A stretch of DNA of 63,706 nt, counting the filler, from Globobulimina sp. (Eukaryota), in NCBI GenBank assembly GCA_003354225.1. It is 33 parts of 33 records of this genome, joined end to end, with 100 filler letters (N's around TTAATTAATTAA, not from the genome) between each part and the next. Parts side by side here need not be neighbours in the genome. Positions count along the whole stretch, not along the records: positions 15,481 to 17,314 come from PIVH01011411.1; 32 more parts are not named here. One strand, given 5' to 3'. Position numbers and translations under genes: made by a program. Under the pieces are notes generated by a model that did not search any database, had not been told where the DNA came from, and saw only the letters and a program-made list of their open reading frames with translations. Within the stretch, counting starts at the first letter, position 1. Every line of letters begins with the position of its first letter. This document shows positions 5,084 through 48,251 of the stretch, piece by piece.

Positions 5084-5705
5084 TTACTTTTTGACTGATT
5101 TGACTGAAATATTCAACTTATTCATCATAAATTGTAGCTTTGAATTTCTTTTCTTTCGTTTTCTTTTCCTATGTCGGTGATAATCGTGCGGATTATTCAC
5201 GTGATCGCACACTTGCTCATCAATGCCGATCTCATTCATCTTATTATTTAAACACAAATGCGAATGTAAGTTATTATTCATCTTATTTTTCAGCATTTTT
5301 CTTTCCCACATTGGTTGCAGCCACTTCTCGCTCCAAAAAACATCGCCAACCGCATAGTCAATAATGGTATCCACGATATCCTTACAAATGAACGAAAACG
5401 CTTCGAACTGATAATTCATCAAAATATCGCGCATTTGTTCCACGTCAAAGGAGGCGATTTCCAGCGAATCGGTTAATTTCGTACATACACAATGCACCGA
5501 TTCGAATTTATTATATTTCCTCGCAATATTCAAATATAACGATTTTATATATTCTAATATCGCATATCTGTCCATTCTGCCTTGGTATTCGGGGAAATAT
5601 TCGGCAAATAAGTCGCAGCGTTGGTAAAATAAATCGATTTTGTTGATGACGAGAATGAACTGCGTCGCGCTGCTTTGGTTCTCGTTGTTACTGATAATGT
5701 CTTAG
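5084..5705 (-). CDS. Divergent G-protein alpha-like protein, 5'-partial, with C-terminal extension
   Basis: FILVINKIDLF (NKxD, G4)..FAEYFPEYQG..ILEYIKSLYL..VHCVCTKLTD. Confidence 0.65.
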
Positions 5706-11697: not shown

Positions 11698-13182
11698 TTA
11701 ATTGGTTCTATCGAAGAAAATGTCAACGGATTGCGAGTTTGTCCGGGGACACGACTGGGTTTGCTTCTTTTTATTCTGTTTCGTTACTTTATCATTATTT
11801 GTGTGCGTTGGCTGCGATATCGTCAACGTAAACTGCTGCCGAATCGGATTCTTTTTATTTTGCTCATCGGAGCGTTGTTGTTGGACGTTCCGCGATATGC
11901 TCTGGCTCTGCATATCAAGTATCTTATCGCCAGAAACAGTGGTCGTCGCAGTACAGTCTCTCTGCATATGATTATTTCTGCCGCATCGGAAGCATTTGCC
12001 TCTATTATTCGGTGCATTCGGCGCATTCTTCTGGGCCTCCAAACGGGTGCCATCACGATGGAATTTGGCATAGCATTCTGATTTATAATGGCCTGGTTTG
12101 CCACAGCGAAAACATTCAGCCTTCGAGCGTTTATTTGGGCCATTCTGCGTCCATTCGGATGGACGTTGCCGTTTATTGCCACTGAAATCGCGACCTCTGC
12201 CACCGCGTGCACCGTATCCTCGTCCTCGACCACGTCCACCACGTCCACGGCCTCGGTAACCTCCACGAGGTCGACCGCGGAATCCACCACGTCCTCGATA
12301 CCCATTTCGACCTCGTCCACGGCCACGGCCTCTACCTCGGATGCCGTAAAACGAGTTGGGATCCGGGTTTCTATATCTGTTTGGCCACTCCGATAAATTA
12401 AATATATTAATATCGCGGTCGTCATACACAGTGAACTGATAACGAGGGTTATTTGCCTCACACCGCGGCTGTAATTTCGCCGGTAACTGCATGACGGCTC
12501 TGATAAATCCGAGTAATGTAATTGGATTTTGTCTGGTGATGTCGCGTCGAGTTATACTATTTATTAAGCCATTATTCATGTAGTCCGACCGGTTATTTTT
12601 CTCCACAAAGCAGGTAATGAACAACGTATACTTTTCACGATCAGTAAGGTATGGTATTACTCGCTCGTCGTCATCACCATAATTCTCGGTTAATATATCG
12701 ATGATTTGTTCAATCTGTTTGAGGCAGCTTTGCATTTTGTTGTATACACGAATCGGATTCTCGTTTTTACGCATAATAATGTTTTTTATTTTAGTTAATA
12801 AGGGCTCAACACTCGTCGGCGGCGGATAAGAATATGTGGCGAAGCTGGTTAATTCGTCCAAATCAAAGCGATCTGAGTCGGTAAGGTTACAGCGATCAAA
12901 GTATAGCTGGCGACTTCCCGTTGGTATGGAATTTAATATTTCTTTGGCTAGCATCGTATGCGGATGATCTGGATGGCCATCTCTGTAATTTCGCACATCC
13001 AAAATCCAGCGAAACGTATCTAATCCCGATCTTATCCATGGTTTGGTGAATTTCCTCAACGTGGATTGTAGAAATATCAATTCGGGGAAGGTTTGTATAT
13101 GATCGCCATCATCGGATTCATTATTATTGTTGGTATTATGTCGATTGCTGTTGCGTGTCGTTCGTTTCTTTGTCGTTGTCAT
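11698..13182 (-). mobile_element. gag: Gag-like protein of a retrotransposon (RGG tract plus two CCHC zinc knuckles)
   Basis: Intronless 494-aa ORF with CFRCGKPGHYKSEC and CFRCGRNNHMQRDC (CX2CX4HX4C) after a long RG/RGG tract. Confidence 0.75.
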
Positions 13183-13354
13183 ATCTGATACAAATAATTA
13201 GTTTTAGTTGGTTGGGTTTGGTGGATTTGTATCGGATTTATGCAAAGTATCAAATTTTATATCATTTTATTCAAAAGTGCCATGCCCGCCACACGTTCAT
13301 GATAACCCTATCAAACATAGTAGCTGCACGCACATATTATACACACTCATTCTC

Positions 13355-13545: not shown

Positions 13546-15030
13546 TCCATCGTCCTTTTCCACTGGCGATGGTATACCAGCATCTATATCAATATCCATA
13601 TCCTCATTTTCCTCTTCTTTAATTGCCTTATTCTCCTCCTTTGGCGGCAACAGATCTTCCTCTTCGGCTTCCTCTTCCTCTTTTTCTTCCTGTTTCGATG
13701 CATCCATATCCATATCCAATATAACCGCACTCTCCTTATTATTATCAGAAACACCCATTGTTATAGCAATTGTATCCGTATTTGTTTTATGTGCATGCTG
13801 TATCATATCGGATGGGTCCATTTCAATCAATTCCTCGAACGGCATATTCATTTTCAATGTGTCCGCAATGGTGGTATAACCCATAGAGTCTGCTAAATTA
13901 TACGCATTTTTACCCGCATTATTGCGGATGGTAATATTTGGAAAATATTCTAATAAAATAAATACATTATCCGTCAGATTACTACTCGCAGCAAAATGCA
14001 ATGGAGTCCATCCTTTATCGTCCTGATGGTTCATATTGGCGCCATTGCTCAATAAATATCGCACCGTGGTTGGGTTGTTTTGATTCTTTGATACGGCATG
14101 AATCAATGCGGTGCGCTTATTATTATCTTCAATATCGATCAATGCGCCGTTATTGATCACTATTTCAAGGGCTTGAATGTCATTGGTTTGCTCTACAATG
14201 TAATGCAAGGCGGTACAGCCATCATTATCTGCTATGTTTACATCAATATCTGAAGCATTCTGCTTATTATCTCCGCCAAATGCGTCAAAATAAAATTTCA
14301 ATCGATTTTCTAAGGGCAGAGTATCTGCGCCATTCTGGCATATCAAATGTAAGATGGTTTTACCAGAATTGTCTCGTTTTGTGACTGGATCGCCGTCGAA
14401 TGCATTCAAAAACATTTTGAAGATAGACATATCGGATAACTCTCGGTTGAGACACATTAAATGCACACCACTTTGGTGGTTTCGATCCATTATATTTACG
14501 TTTGCGCCATGTTCAATCAATTTCTGCAACAAAGAAGGATGTATTACTCAGTTGCCATGATGAAGTGAAATAAATTTAAAAAACTTTTCACTTTGCATCA
14601 TGCCAACTAATTAATCTTTGATGCTGCGTTTCATTTCTGACAGCATCAAAGACCATATATACATATTTGACATAAATTGTACCTTGACAATATTCCATTT
14701 ATTTTGCTGTATAGCATAATGAATGGCGGTTCTATTATTATCCAATAAATTTTTCCTATTTATGCTTATTTTTTTCATTCGCGGTAGAAACTTATCCAAA
14801 GAGTCCCATTCGCCATTTTCCGCCAAGCCTAATATACCTTGACTGATACTCAATGGCTGCTTTGTTTTGTCAATAAAATCTTCAATCCTCAACACCATAA
14901 AATAAGCACCGCTGAAGAACCATGTAATGATCCCCAAGCTGTAAAAAGCAGTGTAAGTCGGATCAGTCCATATCTTATCCCACAAATTATAATATGCAGC
15001 ACCAAATATTTGCGTCTTTTGTTGGTGACA
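13546..15030 (-). CDS. Ankyrin-repeat protein with upstream TM segment and acidic tail; intron 14524..14682; partial at both ends
   Basis: Repeats RTAIHYA, GKTILHL, GCTALHY, RTALIHA, GWTPLHFAA; splicing joins WNIVK to KLIEHGANVN. Confidence 0.85.
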
Positions 15031-15225
15031 CTTCATGGTCGACTCGGGGCCGCTTTGAAGACGAAAGCCTTCTCACCGGCTCCCTCAGGCAAGGGTCGAG
15101 GTGGAGCGCTGGCAACATCTCTTCATACATGGTGCATGCGACATTGAGGTTGTGCATATTGCCGAGGAGCGAATCTCGGCTGGGCAGACCTCAGTCTATC
15201 GCGAAGTGACCGACGGGGCCATCCG

Positions 15226-15380
15226 ACTCAGTTGGAAGAAGAATGCCCCGATTTGGAATTCGATATTCGGGGGCCGGGCAAAAAGATGCTGTCGGCGGTT
15301 GCCCGATTGCTGAAGAGCGTAAAAGCAAAGCGGTTGGCAATTGAAGCGGGCTCGATGACGATTGCCCTCTACGAAGCCTT
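15226..15380 (+). CDS. Bacterial Xaa-Pro aminopeptidase N-terminal (creatinase-N) fragment, Planctomycete-like
   Basis: TQLEEECPDLEFDIRGPGKKMLSAVARLL..RLAIEAGSMT, within a GC-rich block from about 15030. Confidence 0.6.
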
Positions 15381-15799
15381 NNNNNNNNNNNNNNNNNNNN
15401 NNNNNNNNNNNNNNNNNNNNNNNNTTAATTAATTAANNNNNNNNNNNNNNNNNNNNNNNNNNNNNNNNNNNNNNNNNNNNATACTTTCCTCAAATTCATG
15501 GCAAAGTCAGAGAATTATAAGTTCTAATACGAATAATAGCAAATATATCGGCAATGTTGCTATAAATGGAGCAGAACTTTCGACTCCGCCTGTTTGCGTC
15601 TTGGCCATTTTAATTATAAACGAACCTTACAAATATAACATTTTTAAAGTGCTTTGCCAACATATAATTGGGATAATGAGCATACCGGTACTTTGAAAAT
15701 AACAGTTGAGATAACTTAGGAGTTGGTCATCTAGAAGACATTGAAATGTTGTTACTTGAGTTACTAAGTTTTATTAAATTATTAAAATGTGCTGCCAGA

Positions 15800-16798
15800 C
15801 TAACAATAACCTGTGATTAGATTCATCAGTCCTTGCAAAATGCGATCAAACATTGGTCTTTGTGTGCTACTAGTTTGCCAGCAAGAAGAAATTAAACTTT
15901 TATAATGTGCTGGACATTCTTGAGAGATGGTCGGCCTATTTCCCTTTTCCAAGTCCGATAAATATCGAAAACACCGTTGATCAAAAGCGTTTTTTCTTTC
16001 ATATATTTCCCAAGCGATAACACCAAAATTAAATACATCGATTTTTATATCAAATCCATTAAATTGCACAGTACCATCATCACTGTGTCGAGTAAATAAT
16101 TCTGGAGCCATATATCCTCCATAACAAATTTGTTCAGGATCATTTATGCGTTGATGTATTGTATTTAATTGTATGGAAAATCCGAAATCCGCAATTTTTA
16201 TTCGATTTTGTTGATCCAGTAACAAATTATGCAGTTTTAAATCACAATGAATTATCATTTGATTATGAATATATTGCATACCACGGGCGATATCAATGAG
16301 CATAACCAATTTATCCATATATTTAATCTGTTTTTGTCCGCTAAAAAATAATAAATCATATAAATGTCCATTGGGTAAATATTCCATTGCTAAATATAAA
16401 TCATTTGATTCTCTATTGATATAATGCCCAATTAATAATGTTATATTTGGATGTTGTAATTTGTTCAATAACTTAAGCTCTCTGTTAAAATCCGATAATA
16501 TTTGATCTGTTAATTCAAAACACTGAAATTGTTTCAATGCAATGTAGTGCTCATCTTTATACAGTGCATGGTGAACGTGAGCGGTTTTACCACGACTCAC
16601 ATCTCTTTGTATTATCGATACATCGTTTAAATCAAAATCGTTGTTATAATCGTACAAAATATGATAAAATTTAGAACAAATAATCGCGATTGAATTAGGT
16701 AAAGGTACTTGTATTTGATGAATATAACCAGAAACTAATAATTTTGATTGCAAGTAATCATTTCCCAAAGGGTTCTGTGTTGGAAAAGGAAGATTCAT
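15800..16798 (-). CDS. Tyrosine-kinase-like (TKL) protein kinase
   Basis: IALK, HCDLKLHN, KIADFG, YMAPE, DVFNFGVIAWE, CW....QRP.F; glycine loop is degenerate. Confidence 0.92.
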   Translation of the reverse strand: MNLPFPTQNPLGNDYLQSKLLVSGYIHQIQVPLPNSIAIICSKFYHILYDYNNDFDLNDVSIIQRDVSRGKTAHVHHALYKDEHYIALKQFQCFELTDQILSDFNRELKLLNKLQHPNITLLIGHYINRESNDLYLAMEYLPNGHLYDLLFFSGQKQIKYMDKLVMLIDIARGMQYIHNQMIIHCDLKLHNLLLDQQNRIKIADFGFSIQLNTIHQRINDPEQICYGGYMAPELFTRHSDDGTVQFNGFDIKIDVFNFGVIAWEIYERKNAFDQRCFRYLSDLEKGNRPTISQECPAHYKSLISSCWQTSSTQRPMFDRILQGLMNLITGYC

Positions 16799-16853
16799 GG
16801 TAGCTTTGACAATTTTAACTGAGGTAACTGTTTTCTTTTAATTTTTACACGTC

Positions 16854-17105: not shown

Positions 17106-17109
17106 GTCA

Positions 17110-17314
17110 CAGACAGTGTGGCTGGAACCTGTACCTCAGAGTTATATTCGTTCTCTGAAGATCACCCCCGATATTGACCAGCAGACTGTCACGGTTGAGG
17201 CCGTGGTCACTGCGCCGATCGACAGACTGAGCCTGAATGTCACAGCCAAGCAGGGCCGGTTCGGAAGATATCGCGCCGAGGTGCCGGCAGAACAGGCCGC
17301 TGTACTGAGCATCG
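17110..17314 (+). CDS. Bacterial glycoside hydrolase family 2 fragment
   Basis: QTVWLEPVPQSYIRSLKITPDID matches the GH2 (GIW)QTVWLE..ITPD motif. Confidence 0.75.
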
Positions 17315-24639: not shown

Positions 24640-25050
24640 ATGAACAATGCTGTCAGGAAAAGACGGTTCCAATTATTAGTAAGTGGATACGTTAGAAAAT
24701 GTAGCACTCCATACATCCACACAGATATTATTAGAATTATTCATGCGTTCCATTATATAATATATAAAATATTGGAATTATATTCTATTGGAAAAAATAG
24801 ATCCGGACAACAAGGAAACGGAGGAAATGAAGATATTACAAAAATAACAAAAATAAAAACATTTGAAAAAAAAATAAAAAATATTGTTACTTGTGGTGGT
24901 AATTGGAATGGTGCAGCAGCGTATATTTTATTTGATGATGAAACATATGAATGTTGCGGTGATAATCGAAGGGGTGTATTAGGTGTTGGCCATTATAATA
25001 ACATTAATATATGGCATCAAATAAAAGATATGAAAATAAAAAATATATTT
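24640..25050 (+). CDS. RCC1-repeat-like protein with N-terminal LLVSGY motif, 3'-partial
   Basis: LYSIGKNRSGQQGNG and YECCGDNRRGVLGVG match RCC1 G.N..GQLG.G repeats. Confidence 0.75.
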
Positions 25051-31125: not shown

Positions 31126-31824
31126 TTACAAAAATTCAATTTCACATTGCGACGCTTTTCTAAATCCAACAGCAAATCGATATTGATCAATTTTTATTTT
31201 TTTAAAAGCAACTCCATGATCTTTCCCATTAATACAATATCGAATTGTTCGACGATTTAAATTAACAGTCATTGATAACCAATCATTGGTTTTACCAAAC
31301 CGTTCACCGTAAGCTCTCCCATTACTTATGTCTTGTTCAAAGACCTTCGCAGTGTTTCCAGAAAATAAATATCCGCCATCCGTATAAAAACAGGTACTTG
31401 TCTTATATTTTGTGATTAATCTCGTTTGATTTGGTATAATTCCAACGAATGGATGGTAATTGTCATGAACAATGTGGCCAGCTTTGCATATTCTAATACT
31501 CCATGTATAAAATGTGCGTTTTTTTATATTGATGACTTCATTTCCATAAACACAATAATATCCGTTAATTGTCAAATAATTTAAATGTTTTATTGACGCA
31601 ACACACTGTATTTTTTTCCTATTTCTGGATATCCTCATCTTTGCATGATGATATATAGCATTCCAAGTGTCACATAATGGCACAAACCAATATTCAAAAC
31701 ATAAATCTTGTATGTCGCGTGGTATTGATATGTGGTGGGTACTCTCAACATGTAATCTTATATATCCAATCACTAACAAATCGGTTCCAATTTTCTTGTT
31801 AAATTTGTCCATCGTTATTGCCAT
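31126..31824 (-). CDS. SPRY/B30.2-like domain protein with N-terminal LLVxGY motif
   Basis: YTWSIRI..FVGII..YGERF..DWLSMTVNLNRRTIRYCINGKDHGVAF..YRFAV; start inferred at MAITMD. Confidence 0.75.
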   Translation of the reverse strand: MAITMDKFNKKIGTDLLVIGYIRLHVESTHHISIPRDIQDLCFEYWFVPLCDTWNAIYHHAKMRISRNRKKIQCVASIKHLNYLTINGYYCVYGNEVINIKKRTFYTWSIRICKAGHIVHDNYHPFVGIIPNQTRLITKYKTSTCFYTDGGYLFSGNTAKVFEQDISNGRAYGERFGKTNDWLSMTVNLNRRTIRYCINGKDHGVAFKKIKIDQYRFAVGFRKASQCEIEFL

Positions 31825-35286: not shown

Positions 35287-36549
35287 TTACATTACATTGA
35301 GATCATTATCATTCTCTTCATCATCATCTTCATCCTCATCATCATCATCATCGTCATCTTCACCAAAATCACCCATTAAGCCGGCAGACATCAATGAATT
35401 CTCAATAATTATATGCTGTACGTCGTTAAACACCTTTTCAACATTATTTTTATCCGTCGCCAATGTAACATGCGTAAAAATGGATTTTTCAGCGGACTTA
35501 TTTTTTGAGACAAAAGCATTCTTAATATATTGGGCGGAATCGTCAAATGAGAATGGACCGCCTTCATAGTCATCAAATTCGGGACACAAAGAAATGGCTT
35601 TATTCTCATTTAGTTTTTGGGCAAATAAGTCTTTTTTATTTAGAAATAAGATCATTGATGTTTTCTCAAACCAGGCGTCGTTGCAAATGGAGTCGAATAA
35701 TACTAATTGGTCAGCCATAGAATTAACGCCTTCGTCTTCAAACATAACCTCATCATAACACGACAAACTCGCAACAAATATTACGGCGGTCACGCCTTCA
35801 AAGCAATGAATCCATTTTTTACGTTCGGATTTTTGTCCGCCGACATCAAATATATGAAATGTATTCTTTTGTATTGTAAATTTCTGGTCAATCACTCCCG
35901 TGGTCCGATAGCGGACTAACAAAATGTCCTCCTCATTGGGTATATAGTTCGACGATGATATTTCAGATATTTTATCCCAAAAATACGACGAACTGTCCTC
36001 AATCTTCATTTTTGCGCGTCGCGAATAGATATCTTTAATTATTTCTTCTTTCCATAATGCAATGCACGCGGAGGCAATCTCGTCATTTAACTATATGCGA
36101 ATATGCGTATTGTATTATATTTTATTTATATTTGTAGAGTTTCTCTTAACTTTGGGGTCTTTAACAGATTGTAATATGGTAACAGCTCTTTGTCCGTCGA
36201 CCGATAATTGTTTAAAGGCATTGAAATCATGCGGTTTCTTATAGTCATCGCCATATTGATTTAAAAGTTCGTCTTCGGCTAAAAATTCGATGCATTCGAT
36301 GGCTAATTTCATTTGCTCGATTATTTGGGCATGGATATGGTCAACGAAAGTCAATCTGTCCTCAGAATTATCAAATCCTGTTCCATGTATTTTTTTTAAC
36401 TGTTTGAATAATGTCGATTTGCCGGATCCACCGCTGCCTAAAAATAATAATTTTTTCACATATTTATCTTTTTGTTTTTGTTTATTTAATTCATTGTTTA
36501 ATCGTTTATCTTTTTGTCCGTCGGGATTGTCGCTTAAGCAGGCACCCAT
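35287..36549 (-). CDS. Heterotrimeric G-protein alpha subunit; intron 36091..36150; acidic tail
   Basis: MGAC N-terminus, GSGGSGKST, RYRTTG, DVGGQKSERKKW, NKKD, TLATD. Confidence 0.95.
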
Positions 36550-36814
36550 TAGTAAAGACTGCTGAGTAACTGCCAAAGAGAGGTTTTAGTGCCGTGGTTT
36601 TTTTTTATTGCGTTTTGTTAGCTGGTTGTTGACAGACTCACTGCGCTCAGCAANNNNNNNNNNNNNNNNNNNNNNNNNNNNNNNNNNNNNNNNNNNNTTA
36701 ATTAATTAANNNNNNNNNNNNNNNNNNNNNNNNNNNNNNNNNNNNNNNNNNNNGTCCTTCGCGCACTTCTTTACAAACAGAGGCGTGAGCAACAAAGTCA
36801 CTCGCCTCCAGCTA

Positions 36815-37458
36815 CAGCTCCTGGCTTCAGACTTGCCGCCTCTGCGGCTGCCAACAACCTTTGGGATCTTTATCACATGGATTTGAAGACCGCATTTCTG
36901 CAAGGTCAAGCATATGACGACTCTAGGAATGTCCTGTGCGAACTCCCTAAGGAAGCCGGGCAACCATGGTACATGGCAGCATGGATGAAAAAGCCTGCGT
37001 ATGGTTTGAATGATGCACCAAGACGCTGGTGGAACGTTGTTGATGAGAAACTGAGGTCCTATGGCTTGGTGCCCACTAGAGCTGACCGCTGCACATATGT
37101 ACTATATCATGACAATGTCAAGTCAAACACAAAAGGGCCAAAGTCGCCCATGTGACCAGACCTGAAGTCATTTGCCCCGAAGAATGTGATGCAAACTCTG
37201 GATGATGCTGTTGAATATCTTATGGATCCTGTCACAGGAAGTAACTGCCAGGGAAGAAAGGTCGCTGGCATTGTTTGCCTACATGTTGATGATCTCTTCA
37301 TGGCTGGGAACAGTTTCTTCCAAGAACGTGTCATGGGAGGTTTGAGAAAGGACTTTCAGGTAGGGTCTGAAGATAAGAATGACATCATGTTCGTTGGACA
37401 ACGGATCAGATGGATAGGAAAGGACGCCCCTGCGTCTGCAACCAAGAACACTAAGAAG
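36815..37458 (+). mobile_element. Ty1/copia reverse transcriptase fragment with in-frame TGA (37153..37155)
   Basis: MDLKTAFLQG, KKPAYGLNDAPRRWW, ADRC, CLHVDDLF; noticeably more GC-rich than host DNA. Confidence 0.88.
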
Positions 37459-37575
37459 TCCGCACATGTGGACAAGGAATATCTTGCCTTCCCGCTTCAA
37501 TATCTGGCCGCACCGGTTTAGCAATGGCAGGCAATACTTGTTGAATATCTCCGGCGACAAAAGAGTGCTGGACGT
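37459..37575 (-). CDS. Prokaryotic URO-D/methyltransferase family fragment
   Basis: LLSPEIFNKYCLP..ILKREGKIFLVHMCG (SP..F..Y..P ... HxCG). Confidence 0.7.
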
Positions 37576-41813: not shown

Positions 41814-42452
41814 TTATAGCTGAAATGTTTGCGAACTCATTTGTGACTGATGTTTTGTATTCGTTTTGTTTAAAATATTATGTATTTCACCAAAAGATTG
41901 TCGTATTTGCTCCAAATGATACAAGGACACCACGTGAATGTAAACCTGTCTTTTATCCCCTTTATTATCTGCAATTAATTTTGATTTTAAATATGAAATT
42001 AAAAATTGAATGCATTCATCATAATCACTGGCATTTCCATTAAAATTTGAGAATGTAAATGGTGTTTCTTTTAGTTTTGCTCTAAATAATTCCTTTCCAG
42101 CCAAAAATAAATGAAACGAGGATTGTTTCAACCAATTATTATTGGTAATAGTTTGGAAATTTTTGACTAAATTAAATGTATCCCATTTACTGTCCCATTT
42201 ATAATACGTTGTCAATGGGATTAAAAATATTAAGCCCTCGCATTTATCTTCAAATTGGCAGATCCATCGCTTGACTGCAGTACGAAACATTGGTTGGATA
42301 TTTGTAAAATGATACATTGAGCGCAAAAAAATTAAATCTTTCAGCTCATTCGCACTATTTCGCATATGATATTTCGTGGCGGATTTACGTTTTGCAGAGA
42401 AACCAATGCTTTTGGAACAAATTATAACATCTTTATGTGTGGGCACACAGTC
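41814..42452 (-). CDS. Degenerate G-alpha-like protein, 5'-partial
   Basis: KRWICQFE..LIFLIPLTTY, FQTITNNNWLKQSSFHLFL, YIHVVSLY; DVGGQ and NKxD are not conserved. Confidence 0.7.
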   Translation of the reverse strand, partial: DCVPTHKDVIICSKSIGFSAKRKSATKYHMRNSANELKDLIFLRSMYHFTNIQPMFRTAVKRWICQFEDKCEGLIFLIPLTTYYKWDSKWDTFNLVKNFQTITNNNWLKQSSFHLFLAGKELFRAKLKETPFTFSNFNGNASDYDECIQFLISYLKSKLIADNKGDKRQVYIHVVSLYHLEQIRQSFGEIHNILNKTNTKHQSQMSSQTFQL

Positions 42453-46418: not shown

Positions 46419-48251
46419 ACTGAAAAGGGACGTGTACAAATAATAAATAATTATATTCCGGTCCAAATATCTGACCATTATCCAAATCATACGGTTATAA
46501 CAAGTATAAATATGGTAAAACAAAAGAAGAGATTCACAAAAACAACCTGGATATTGGAAAATATGTCAATCCAAAATATCAAGAAATTCCAAGATGACTT
46601 AGCAAGCAAAGTAAAGGCGATCGAGAATATAATAAATGATAATAACAACGCTTTGAAGCATAAACCAATCAAAATCATTGCAATGATTGTAAAACACACA
46701 AAAAAGGTACTTATAAATGCAGCGCAGCATTATTTTGGACAGACAACAAAGAGATAAAAAATTTGATTAAGAAAACTAGAATTTATCACAAAAAATACAA
46801 ATCGATCATAAAATACGTACAAAACATTAGAAAGAAATGGTACTCAAAGGTAAGAACAGTAAAAAGACGATGTCAGAATGCATACATTATCGATAAACTT
46901 GGTAAAAAACGATGGGATATCTATCAAATATGGAAAAAAATGGATAAAATGAAGAGTAGAATGGTGCGTAGAGTTAGACGCAAAACGAAGAATAAACGCG
47001 ACATGAAAACAATAAACGAATATAAATCAAAGTCGTGGTATAATTTGGTACAGAAAATGGACGGTAAATGTGATAGAAACAATGATAAGACGATCGGTAA
47101 ATTAATAAAATTAAATGTGGCGATTAAGAAAATAACGAAGGAACGCAACGCCGCACTAAAATATGACGATTTTATTTTTGATGATAAGCAAAAAGCAAAC
47201 GAAATAGCAAAATTTATGAACACAATTGGCCATTTTTCCAACCCATTGCATGATAAATCCATTAAAAAATCACGAAAAAAAGCACGGGAATATGACGCCC
47301 CCTATGACTTTCAACCAAAAATATGGGCGGAAATGGACCCCGCCACGTTAACAAATTTCCAATTGGATGAGATAGCAAAATGGCGCCAAGCGTTGAGTAA
47401 ATTAGTTGGCCCATTCACAAAATCAGAATTACATTATGCATTATACAAAGCTGATCCATCCAAAGCATATCATGGAAGCGTACATCTATGGATTCTGAGA
47501 CACGCTGAGCACCAAATAGCGAATATATTATTATTAGTTTTTAATTGGTGGAAAAATAATGGTGTCATTACAAATAAAATGAATGAACGATTAATGAATC
47601 CATTGGTCAAAGGTGGAAAGGATAAGAGATTAATTGGGTCGTTACGCCCACTCGAATATGGGGTGACGATATTTAAAATATATACAATTATGGTATTTAA
47701 CCGCATAGCGGAGTATGCGGTAAAATATAAATTGTTAACTGTCCACCAATTCGCCTCCAAAATTGCATCGGGATCAGAGGATTGTTTGGCTGATATGGTT
47801 ACGGATATTGACGACATGGTTTGTAACGGTTTCCCGACCGTATTGACGTCGAACGATTCCAGCAGTGCCTATAACGCAATGTACCCCATAATAATTGAAG
47901 ACAAAATGCGTTTTCACTGTGGATTTAATGAAGATGCAATAACAATGTTTAAATCATTCACCAGCAACGTCAGATCGGTTTGCAAGGTAAACAATCAATA
48001 TTCAGATATATTTATACCATCAAACTCATTATTTTCGCAGGGCTTCATACCCGCCGGTTTTGCGTGGTGTATCTATATAAATCCCGGTGTAAGACATCTA
48101 AATGAAAAATATATTTTGCATAATGAATCCGATGGAAAAATGTTGGCGAAAATCCAGCCAAAAGTACTGATGGACGACGTAAATTTTTATATACGTATTA
48201 CAAATAATAAACTGTTAAAGCGAGATGCTGCTAATACATATAATAAAGTCA
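46419..48251 (+). mobile_element. Non-LTR retrotransposon ORF2 fragment (APE end plus divergent RT), frameshift near 46750
   Basis: SDHYP, KQKANEIAKF, PFTKSELHYAL, LVKGGKD..SLRPL, HQFA, DSSSAYN, SQG, LMDD. Confidence 0.82.

Follow-up and report, generated by a model that had tools for sequence, protein, structure and literature searches.

A conserved, predicted two-helix module, putatively a cullin substrate-receptor box, on diverse proteins of rotaliid foraminifera

Three module copies and the genes that carry them

The window (the whole stretch of DNA analysed, 63,706 nucleotides from Globobulimina sp.) comprises 33 contigs of an AT-rich eukaryote, each of ~1.83 kb, with N spacers between them. 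An earlier note had singled out one peptide motif on three of these contigs, and all three peptides do translate in frame exactly where it had placed them. The three copies of this motif (the module) and their genes are listed here, with bit scores from an HMM built solely from 150 database hits (the outside HMM).

15800..16798, minus strand: module and TKL-like kinase in one open frame from the first Met (PK_Tyr_Ser-Thr, E 1.2e-47)
16664..16744, minus strand: module copy 1, at the kinase N-terminus (31.0 bits)
15830-16609, minus strand: TKL-like kinase domain, within ORF 15800..16798
24640..25050, plus strand: module ahead of RCC1 repeats; the ORF starts with Met and runs off the contig end (RCC1 E 3.1e-5)
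24670..24756, plus strand: module copy 2 (22.0 bits)
24775-25005, plus strand: RCC1 repeats, downstream of module copy 2
31126..31812, minus strand: module and SPRY/B30.2, a 228-aa protein (SPRY E 1e-5; mean pLDDT 86.5)
31687..31782, minus strand: module copy 3, nearest to consensus, two helices predicted (42.6 bits)
about 31129-31674, minus strand: SPRY/B30.2 domain (model compared to TRIM67 PRYSPRY: Z 21.3, rmsd 2.0, 155 aligned)

When 2,159 ORFs were scored with the outside HMM, the three copies reached 22.0-42.6 bits, compared to 8.5 bits for the next window ORF and 10.4 bits for the best reversed ORF. The window copies were themselves part of the profile that yielded the 150 hits, so the result checks consistency and is not fully independent. 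The half-match ICKDIVDTIIDY (5354-5389, minus strand), which the earlier note had seen in a G-alpha tail near 5380, scored -1.1 to -2.7 bits, which is noise, and was ruled out as a fourth copy.

Copy 1 occupies residues 19-45 of the kinase ORF, counted from its first Met, and has H for the usual R and N-S for x-D. The kinase itself keeps the Lys, Asp, DFG and APE motifs and has a degenerate glycine-rich loop; its catalytic loop reads HCD, of the non-RD type. The junction between motif and kinase is covered gap-free by contigs from other runs (X4 record 17, 15792-16810; X3 record 12, 15960-16769), and thus it is not an assembly join. No RNA holder is listed for the kinase gene (15800-16798). 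Among kinase alleles from other runs (window 15800-16798, minus strand), 13 of 20 single-base differences alter a residue, one of them changing Y to F at the last aromatic position of the module. In copy 2, the near-invariant Pro is replaced by H, a replacement shared by a paralogue (L051:252-368). In the model of the protein with copy 3, the two helices of the module lie ahead of the SPRY fold.

The window also holds three G-alpha-like genes (5084-5701, 35287-36585 and 41814-42452); two of them are divergent, the third canonical. Inspection by eye further showed a gag-like ORF with a pair of zinc knuckles (11698-13197, minus strand), a copia-type reverse transcriptase fragment (36706-37521, plus strand) and a non-LTR reverse transcriptase (46664-48251, plus strand). 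GC-rich, bacterial-looking ends occur on AT-rich contigs at 17107-17314 and 15000-15380; the contig end at 17107 is probably chimeric, since all four runs have a loose end there.

Anatomy, numbers and carriers of the module

At about 35 residues, the module is conserved as protein-coding sequence, and its predicted structure is a pair of helices. The consensus reads hydrophobic-L-V-x-G-Y-I-R, then a loop that mostly spans 6-11 residues, and then I-P-x-D/E-I-x-x-L-C-x-x-F/Y-Y, with the Gly invariant. An AlphaFold2 model of a 43-residue module places helices at residues 2-20 and 28-38 (pLDDT 75), forming an amphipathic two-helix unit. Third codon positions vary freely among the copies, which indicates constraint on the protein, and the consensus is unchanged in proteins from Bolivina and Nonionella. 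Several proteins bear two or more copies.

A strict DNA pattern (G-Y/F-I/L/V-R, gap, I-P-x-D/E-I) matched the 70-Mb assembly 61 times, compared to 0 times with the pattern reversed; a relaxed pattern gave 287 matches against 25 in the control. Since the relaxed pattern found again 8/13 and 40/52 copies known by other routes, we estimate about 340-430 copies in the assembly, a figure that alleles of the fragmented assembly may inflate and from which introns may hide copies. From three hits in 33 contigs the earlier note had argued for a very large family; the family is indeed large, but the density so implied was overstated. Were 340-430 copies spread over 70 Mb, the Poisson probability of at least three falling in one window would be 0.003-0.007, and thus either the window holds more than an average stretch or the family is larger than estimated.

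A profile of 88 sequences matched 1,412 public representatives (50% clustering), of which the best 150 were inspected; a word-index protein search returned 3 carriers only. Twelve of 25 carriers looked up have a named source, 7 being from Bolivina argentea and 5 from Nonionella stella, all rotaliid foraminifera, and among 16 proteins from a search for kelch-class carriers, none has a named source outside Rotaliida. A lineage-specific, expanded family, as first proposed, is therefore borne out by the copy estimate, the 1,412 representatives and the 12/12 named carriers. A tblastn search of phage records gave no match to the module. We found no published description among the listings and abstracts searched; as far as searched, the module is undescribed.

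The placement of the module is less uniform than the terminal, N-terminal position first ascribed to it. The Gly lies in the first 60 residues of 125 of the 141 top-scoring outside hits (many of them fragments), but in its own genome the module also ends proteins, at the ORF C-terminus of three kelch proteins (L037, L054, L011) and of a myosin head (L062), and it sits inside domains. In a divergent beta-tubulin (L026:1276-2715, plus strand) it is inserted between residues 54 and 57, and a second divergent beta-tubulin (L094:3-665, minus strand) has an insert at the same site; the two inserts are alike, which suggests one event. The module also lies within a Cid1 PAP-associated domain (L097) and, in a protein from outside the genome (P0003), within G-alpha.

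Pfam recognised a domain in 33 of 76 own-genome ORFs (kelch in 6, SPRY in 4 and MATH in 3, for instance) and in 35 of 96 outside proteins (SPRY in 14, kelch in 8, RCC1 in 2 and TLDc in 2, for instance). Across both sets the partners include SPRY, kelch, RCC1, MATH, TLDc, LRR, RING, Ras, Arf and RasGEF, as well as myosin, kinesin, formin, tubulin, ubiquitin-like, NADAR, poly(A) polymerase, helicase and FKBP, so that the receptor-type partners anticipated from the window are present among the carriers. Neither F-box nor SOCS box nor BTB appeared among the best five families of each of the 76 own and 96 outside carriers. Judged by eye against the usual consensus, the nucleotide motifs of the Arf, myosin and G-alpha carriers are degenerate, and the signatures of the Ras and tubulin carriers intact. 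One Nonionella stella protein (P0047) combines the module, TLDc and an iron-hydrogenase large-subunit C-terminal domain.

Comparison with F-box, SOCS box and other folds

The earlier note had likened the second half of the module to the F-box core, and profile comparison agrees: hhalign places module helix 2 on helix 1 of the F-boxes of the same genome with a probability of 35-47% (score 18-20, 19 columns). None of 100 column shuffles reached this score (maximum 12.3), and the reversed profile scored 6.65. The comparison set was 30 canonical own-genome F-boxes, the top 30 of 88 hits; with single F-box sequences, the probability exceeded 15% in only 7 of the 30. The positions in common are I/L at -1, P at 0, D/E at +2, I/L at +3, a hydrophobic residue at +7 and F/Y at +10; the module fits the helix 1 consensus L-P-x-E/D-I/L-x-x-x-I-F-x-Y/F-L, and the column frequencies agree. 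F-boxes (PF00646/PF12937) further resemble the module in their kinds of partner, their mostly N-terminal position, and the pairing of a conserved box with a fast-evolving binding domain.

The module is nevertheless unlike an F-box in several respects. The signature of F-box helices 2-3 (V/T-C/S-K/R-x-W/F within 22 residues) occurs in 0/124 outside and 0/80 own copies, compared to 18/30 canonical F-boxes; a conserved extra helix (LVxGYIR) precedes the Pro; position +6 is hydrophobic, not polar; and the module also occurs at C-termini and within folds. A Pfam search with 11 module peptides (E up to 10) matched F-box models with 0/11, and matched neither LisH nor any other family. Boxes reduced to one or two helices have a precedent in the truncated poxviral F-boxes: as reported in PMC4353913, two-helix poxviral F-boxes bind Skp1, and cowpox CP77 binds with effectively helix 1 alone. 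These PRANC boxes come from viruses or bacteria, sit at the C-terminus and go with ankyrin repeats, whereas the module is cellular, joined to many domain types and has its own upstream helix.

We considered that the module might instead be a handle for docking or oligomerisation with no part in the ubiquitin system. The hairpin would then pair with itself (as in LisH or the RIIa D/D) or bind a shared foraminiferal scaffold, which would localise or cluster the attached domains. Such a handle fits the amphipathic two-helix unit with its invariant Gly, the tolerance of the module inside folds, its two or more copies on several proteins, and its presence on enzymes, motors and GTPases, which are atypical receptors; it leaves unexplained the position-by-position match to F-box helix 1. 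LisH (L-x-x-L-I-x-x-Y-L-x-x-x-G-Y; probability 3%, 8 columns) and RIIa (2-4%) align poorly, together 2-4% over 5-9 columns, although these are weak tests, with one LisH sequence and one partial RIIa sequence as templates. We regard this alternative as unlikely. A PDB sequence search with the module profile gave 0 hits with alignment A2 and only Cdc50 (E 0.17-0.19) with alignment A3; Foldseek with the 43-residue model (pLDDT 75) gave 0 matches; VIA wide gave generic hairpins with the same model (best Z 5.1, rmsd 3.3), with no F-box or SOCS chain among its 50 rows, which excludes nothing; and ESM Atlas gave no usable hit for two module stretches.

We also considered a divergent BC-box plus cullin-box that would bind Elongin C (and B) instead of Skp1. 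The VHL/SOCS box has the same order of elements, a helix, a loop and a Pro-capped helix with phi-P-x-x-phi-x-x-x-phi, and C-terminal copies of the module occur on kelch and myosin proteins. The BC-box consensus is (S/T/P)-L-x-x-x-C/A-x-x-x-I/L/V; it was found, strict or relaxed, in 0/124 outside and 0/80 own copies, as was a Cul5-box with L-P-phi-P (0/124 and 0/80), and with G-Y-I-R set at the end of the BC-helix, the position of the key Leu carries a hydrophobic residue in no more than 19-24% of copies. Since none of the copies tested has F-box helices 2-3, a BC-box or a Cul5-box, the module belongs to neither the F-box nor the SOCS-box family. The Cul2-box consensus phi-P-x-x-phi-x-x-x-phi, taken from PMC13061254, fits 124/124 and 78/80 copies when Cys is counted as hydrophobic, but the extraction of copies forced its first three positions and F-box helix 1 fits it too.

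An Elongin C does appear to be encoded: a C-terminal exon (L195:1503-1616, minus strand; G000:C208) had 17/17 PDB hits to Elongin C (best E 0.06). The Skp1_POZ family search missed this exon, and a pattern search recovered it. No SOCS box (PF07525) exceeds the cut-off in this genome, and thus Elongin C is without known clients here, which counts in favour of such a box. The single cullin compared is closest to Cul4 and Cul3 and furthest from Cul5, which counts against it. On balance, we think an Elongin C box improbable.

Selection, candidate adaptors and a possible role

One module-SPRY gene has at least 40 scored paralogues with 78-86% DNA identity (103 candidates; L163-L192). To a set of these, a subfamily distinct from the window's SPRY gene, we applied codon models M0/M1a/M2a with our own code; from 30 loci fetched, 20 had the module in the ORF, and 17 were kept after 3 truncated or frameshifted members were dropped. 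Over the module (36 codons, with less power than the 149 of SPRY) omega was 0.35 with no positive class (LRT 1.2), compared to an LRT of 245 over SPRY, with omega about 9 at 11% of sites and 17 sites above 0.95. The SPRY LRT was 83 without columns near indels and 114 on a star tree; on indel-free columns with separate trees, it was 37 for the first half and 2.8 (not significant) for the second. Thus, in this subfamily of at least 40 paralogues, the module is under purifying selection and the SPRY domain under strong positive selection. The 17 selected sites fall mostly in loops and strand edges of the window SPRY model, from which nothing was drawn because the alignment is about 24% identical. 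Five of 20 module-SPRY ORFs end in C-I-I-L/I/M, a CaaX-like end, and some members of the subfamily are frameshifted. A similar split is described for nematode F-box families, comprising hundreds of genes, in PMC8120010: purifying selection on the box and positive selection on the binding domain. Those families have true F-boxes and F-box-associated domains, whereas here the hypervariable domain is SPRY and some copies have the CaaX-like end.

A spreading, structurally neutral coding insert (a shuffled exon or mobile-element relic) with no shared partner would account for copies at N-termini, at C-termini and inside loops of unrelated genes, some with catalytic motifs that look degenerate by eye, but it is very improbable given the protein-level conservation with free third positions, the omega of 0.35 in recent paralogues, and the identical consensus in Bolivina and Nonionella.

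The genome has eight Skp1-like loci, comprising a canonical class A and two non-canonical classes, B and C. Class B stops after helix 7. Class C has a different C-terminus, nearly invariant in more than 100 database relatives, one of them named (Ammonia sp.). Paralogues without the C-terminal loop and last helix lie at L116:149-706 (plus strand), L112:41-692 (minus strand) and L115:1459-1896 (plus strand). At L114 the module is fused to a class B Skp1 (32.5 bits) in one frame across a 65-nt GT-AG intron, and at L113 there is a weak, borderline fusion (10.8 bits). No other hit came from the 54 loci that had been picked without regard to the motif, such that the module occurs at 2/8 Skp1-like loci versus 0/45 others (Fisher p 0.02, a value that hinges on a single borderline hit). 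Two further Skp1 genes, P0268 (7.8 bits) and L110 (2.6 bits), have similar-looking stretches that do not rise above noise and were not counted. Cullins gave 7 hits, with at least 6 C-termini without a stop; at L156:1090-1704 (minus strand) a cullin C-terminal domain is followed in frame, by eye, by a ubiquitin-like domain.

We consider the module most likely to be a new variant of cullin substrate-receptor box; that it is a putative half-F-box docking onto a Skp1-family adaptor we judge about evenly balanced. Under the half-F-box reading, the module would be a transferable tag through which proteins dock on a cullin-RING ubiquitin ligase. Helix 2 would lie in the groove with which a Skp1-family protein receives F-box helix 1, and helix 1 (LVxGYIR) would pack on helix 2 where an F-box has its helices 2-3; the partner would likely be a foraminiferal Skp1 paralogue whose C-terminus is short of the canonical loop and last helix. 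Selecting the target for ubiquitination would fall to the attached domain, be it SPRY, kelch, RCC1, MATH or TLDc, or a host-protein copy (of tubulin, a GTPase or the window kinase, for instance). At least one subfamily diversifies its binding domain under positive selection, as would be expected if its members are receptors for changing, possibly foreign, targets. A role as ligase receptor gains indirect support from the combination of a module under purifying selection with a positively selected SPRY domain and from the non-canonical Skp1 paralogues, one of them clearly fused. As reported in PMC12816148, trypanosome cullins (TbCul-E, -F and -G) similarly work with novel, lineage-specific Skp1 paralogues and F-box-less kelch/LRR receptors in a protist; those complexes were immunoisolated, with a handful of receptors and no common box described, whereas the module is a defined box on hundreds of proteins, known at the sequence level.

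Several points weigh against a half-F-box. The F-box match is modest and confined to one short amphipathic helix, and GYIR, the best-conserved half, has no F-box counterpart. A receptor buried within tubulin or G-alpha is an unusual F-box architecture, and the genome already holds at least 42 canonical F-box hits above the Pfam cut-off. As the module is fused to almost anything, the Skp1 fusions may be two more such cases. Finally, the positive selection shows arms-race-like recognition, not ubiquitination.

A wider reading, which we put forward tentatively and think rather doubtful, is that foraminifera have a private second SCF-like system, in which altered Skp1s would read the half-F-box on several hundred receptors, forming an immune-like ubiquitin arsenal with integrated decoys. 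Some receptors would be hypervariable SPRY domains, part of them membrane-anchored via the CaaX end, and tagged copies of tubulin, myosin, kinesin, formin, GTPases and kinases would bait effectors of parasites or symbionts; alternatively, the tagged copies of host proteins would selectively remove cytoskeletal partners.

This analysis adds the genome-wide count, the contrast in selection, the Skp1 classes with their fusion, and Elongin C. The positive selection in this module-SPRY subfamily suggests an arms race, and we found no paper on such recognition systems in this lineage. If the half-F-box reading is true, a cullin-docking box absent from Pfam would be defined, the strongly conserved foraminiferal Skp1 paralogues would be given a purpose, and several hundred anonymous genes per foraminiferal genome would gain an annotation; if the private second system is also real, a single-celled eukaryote would possess a ubiquitin arsenal resembling innate immunity.
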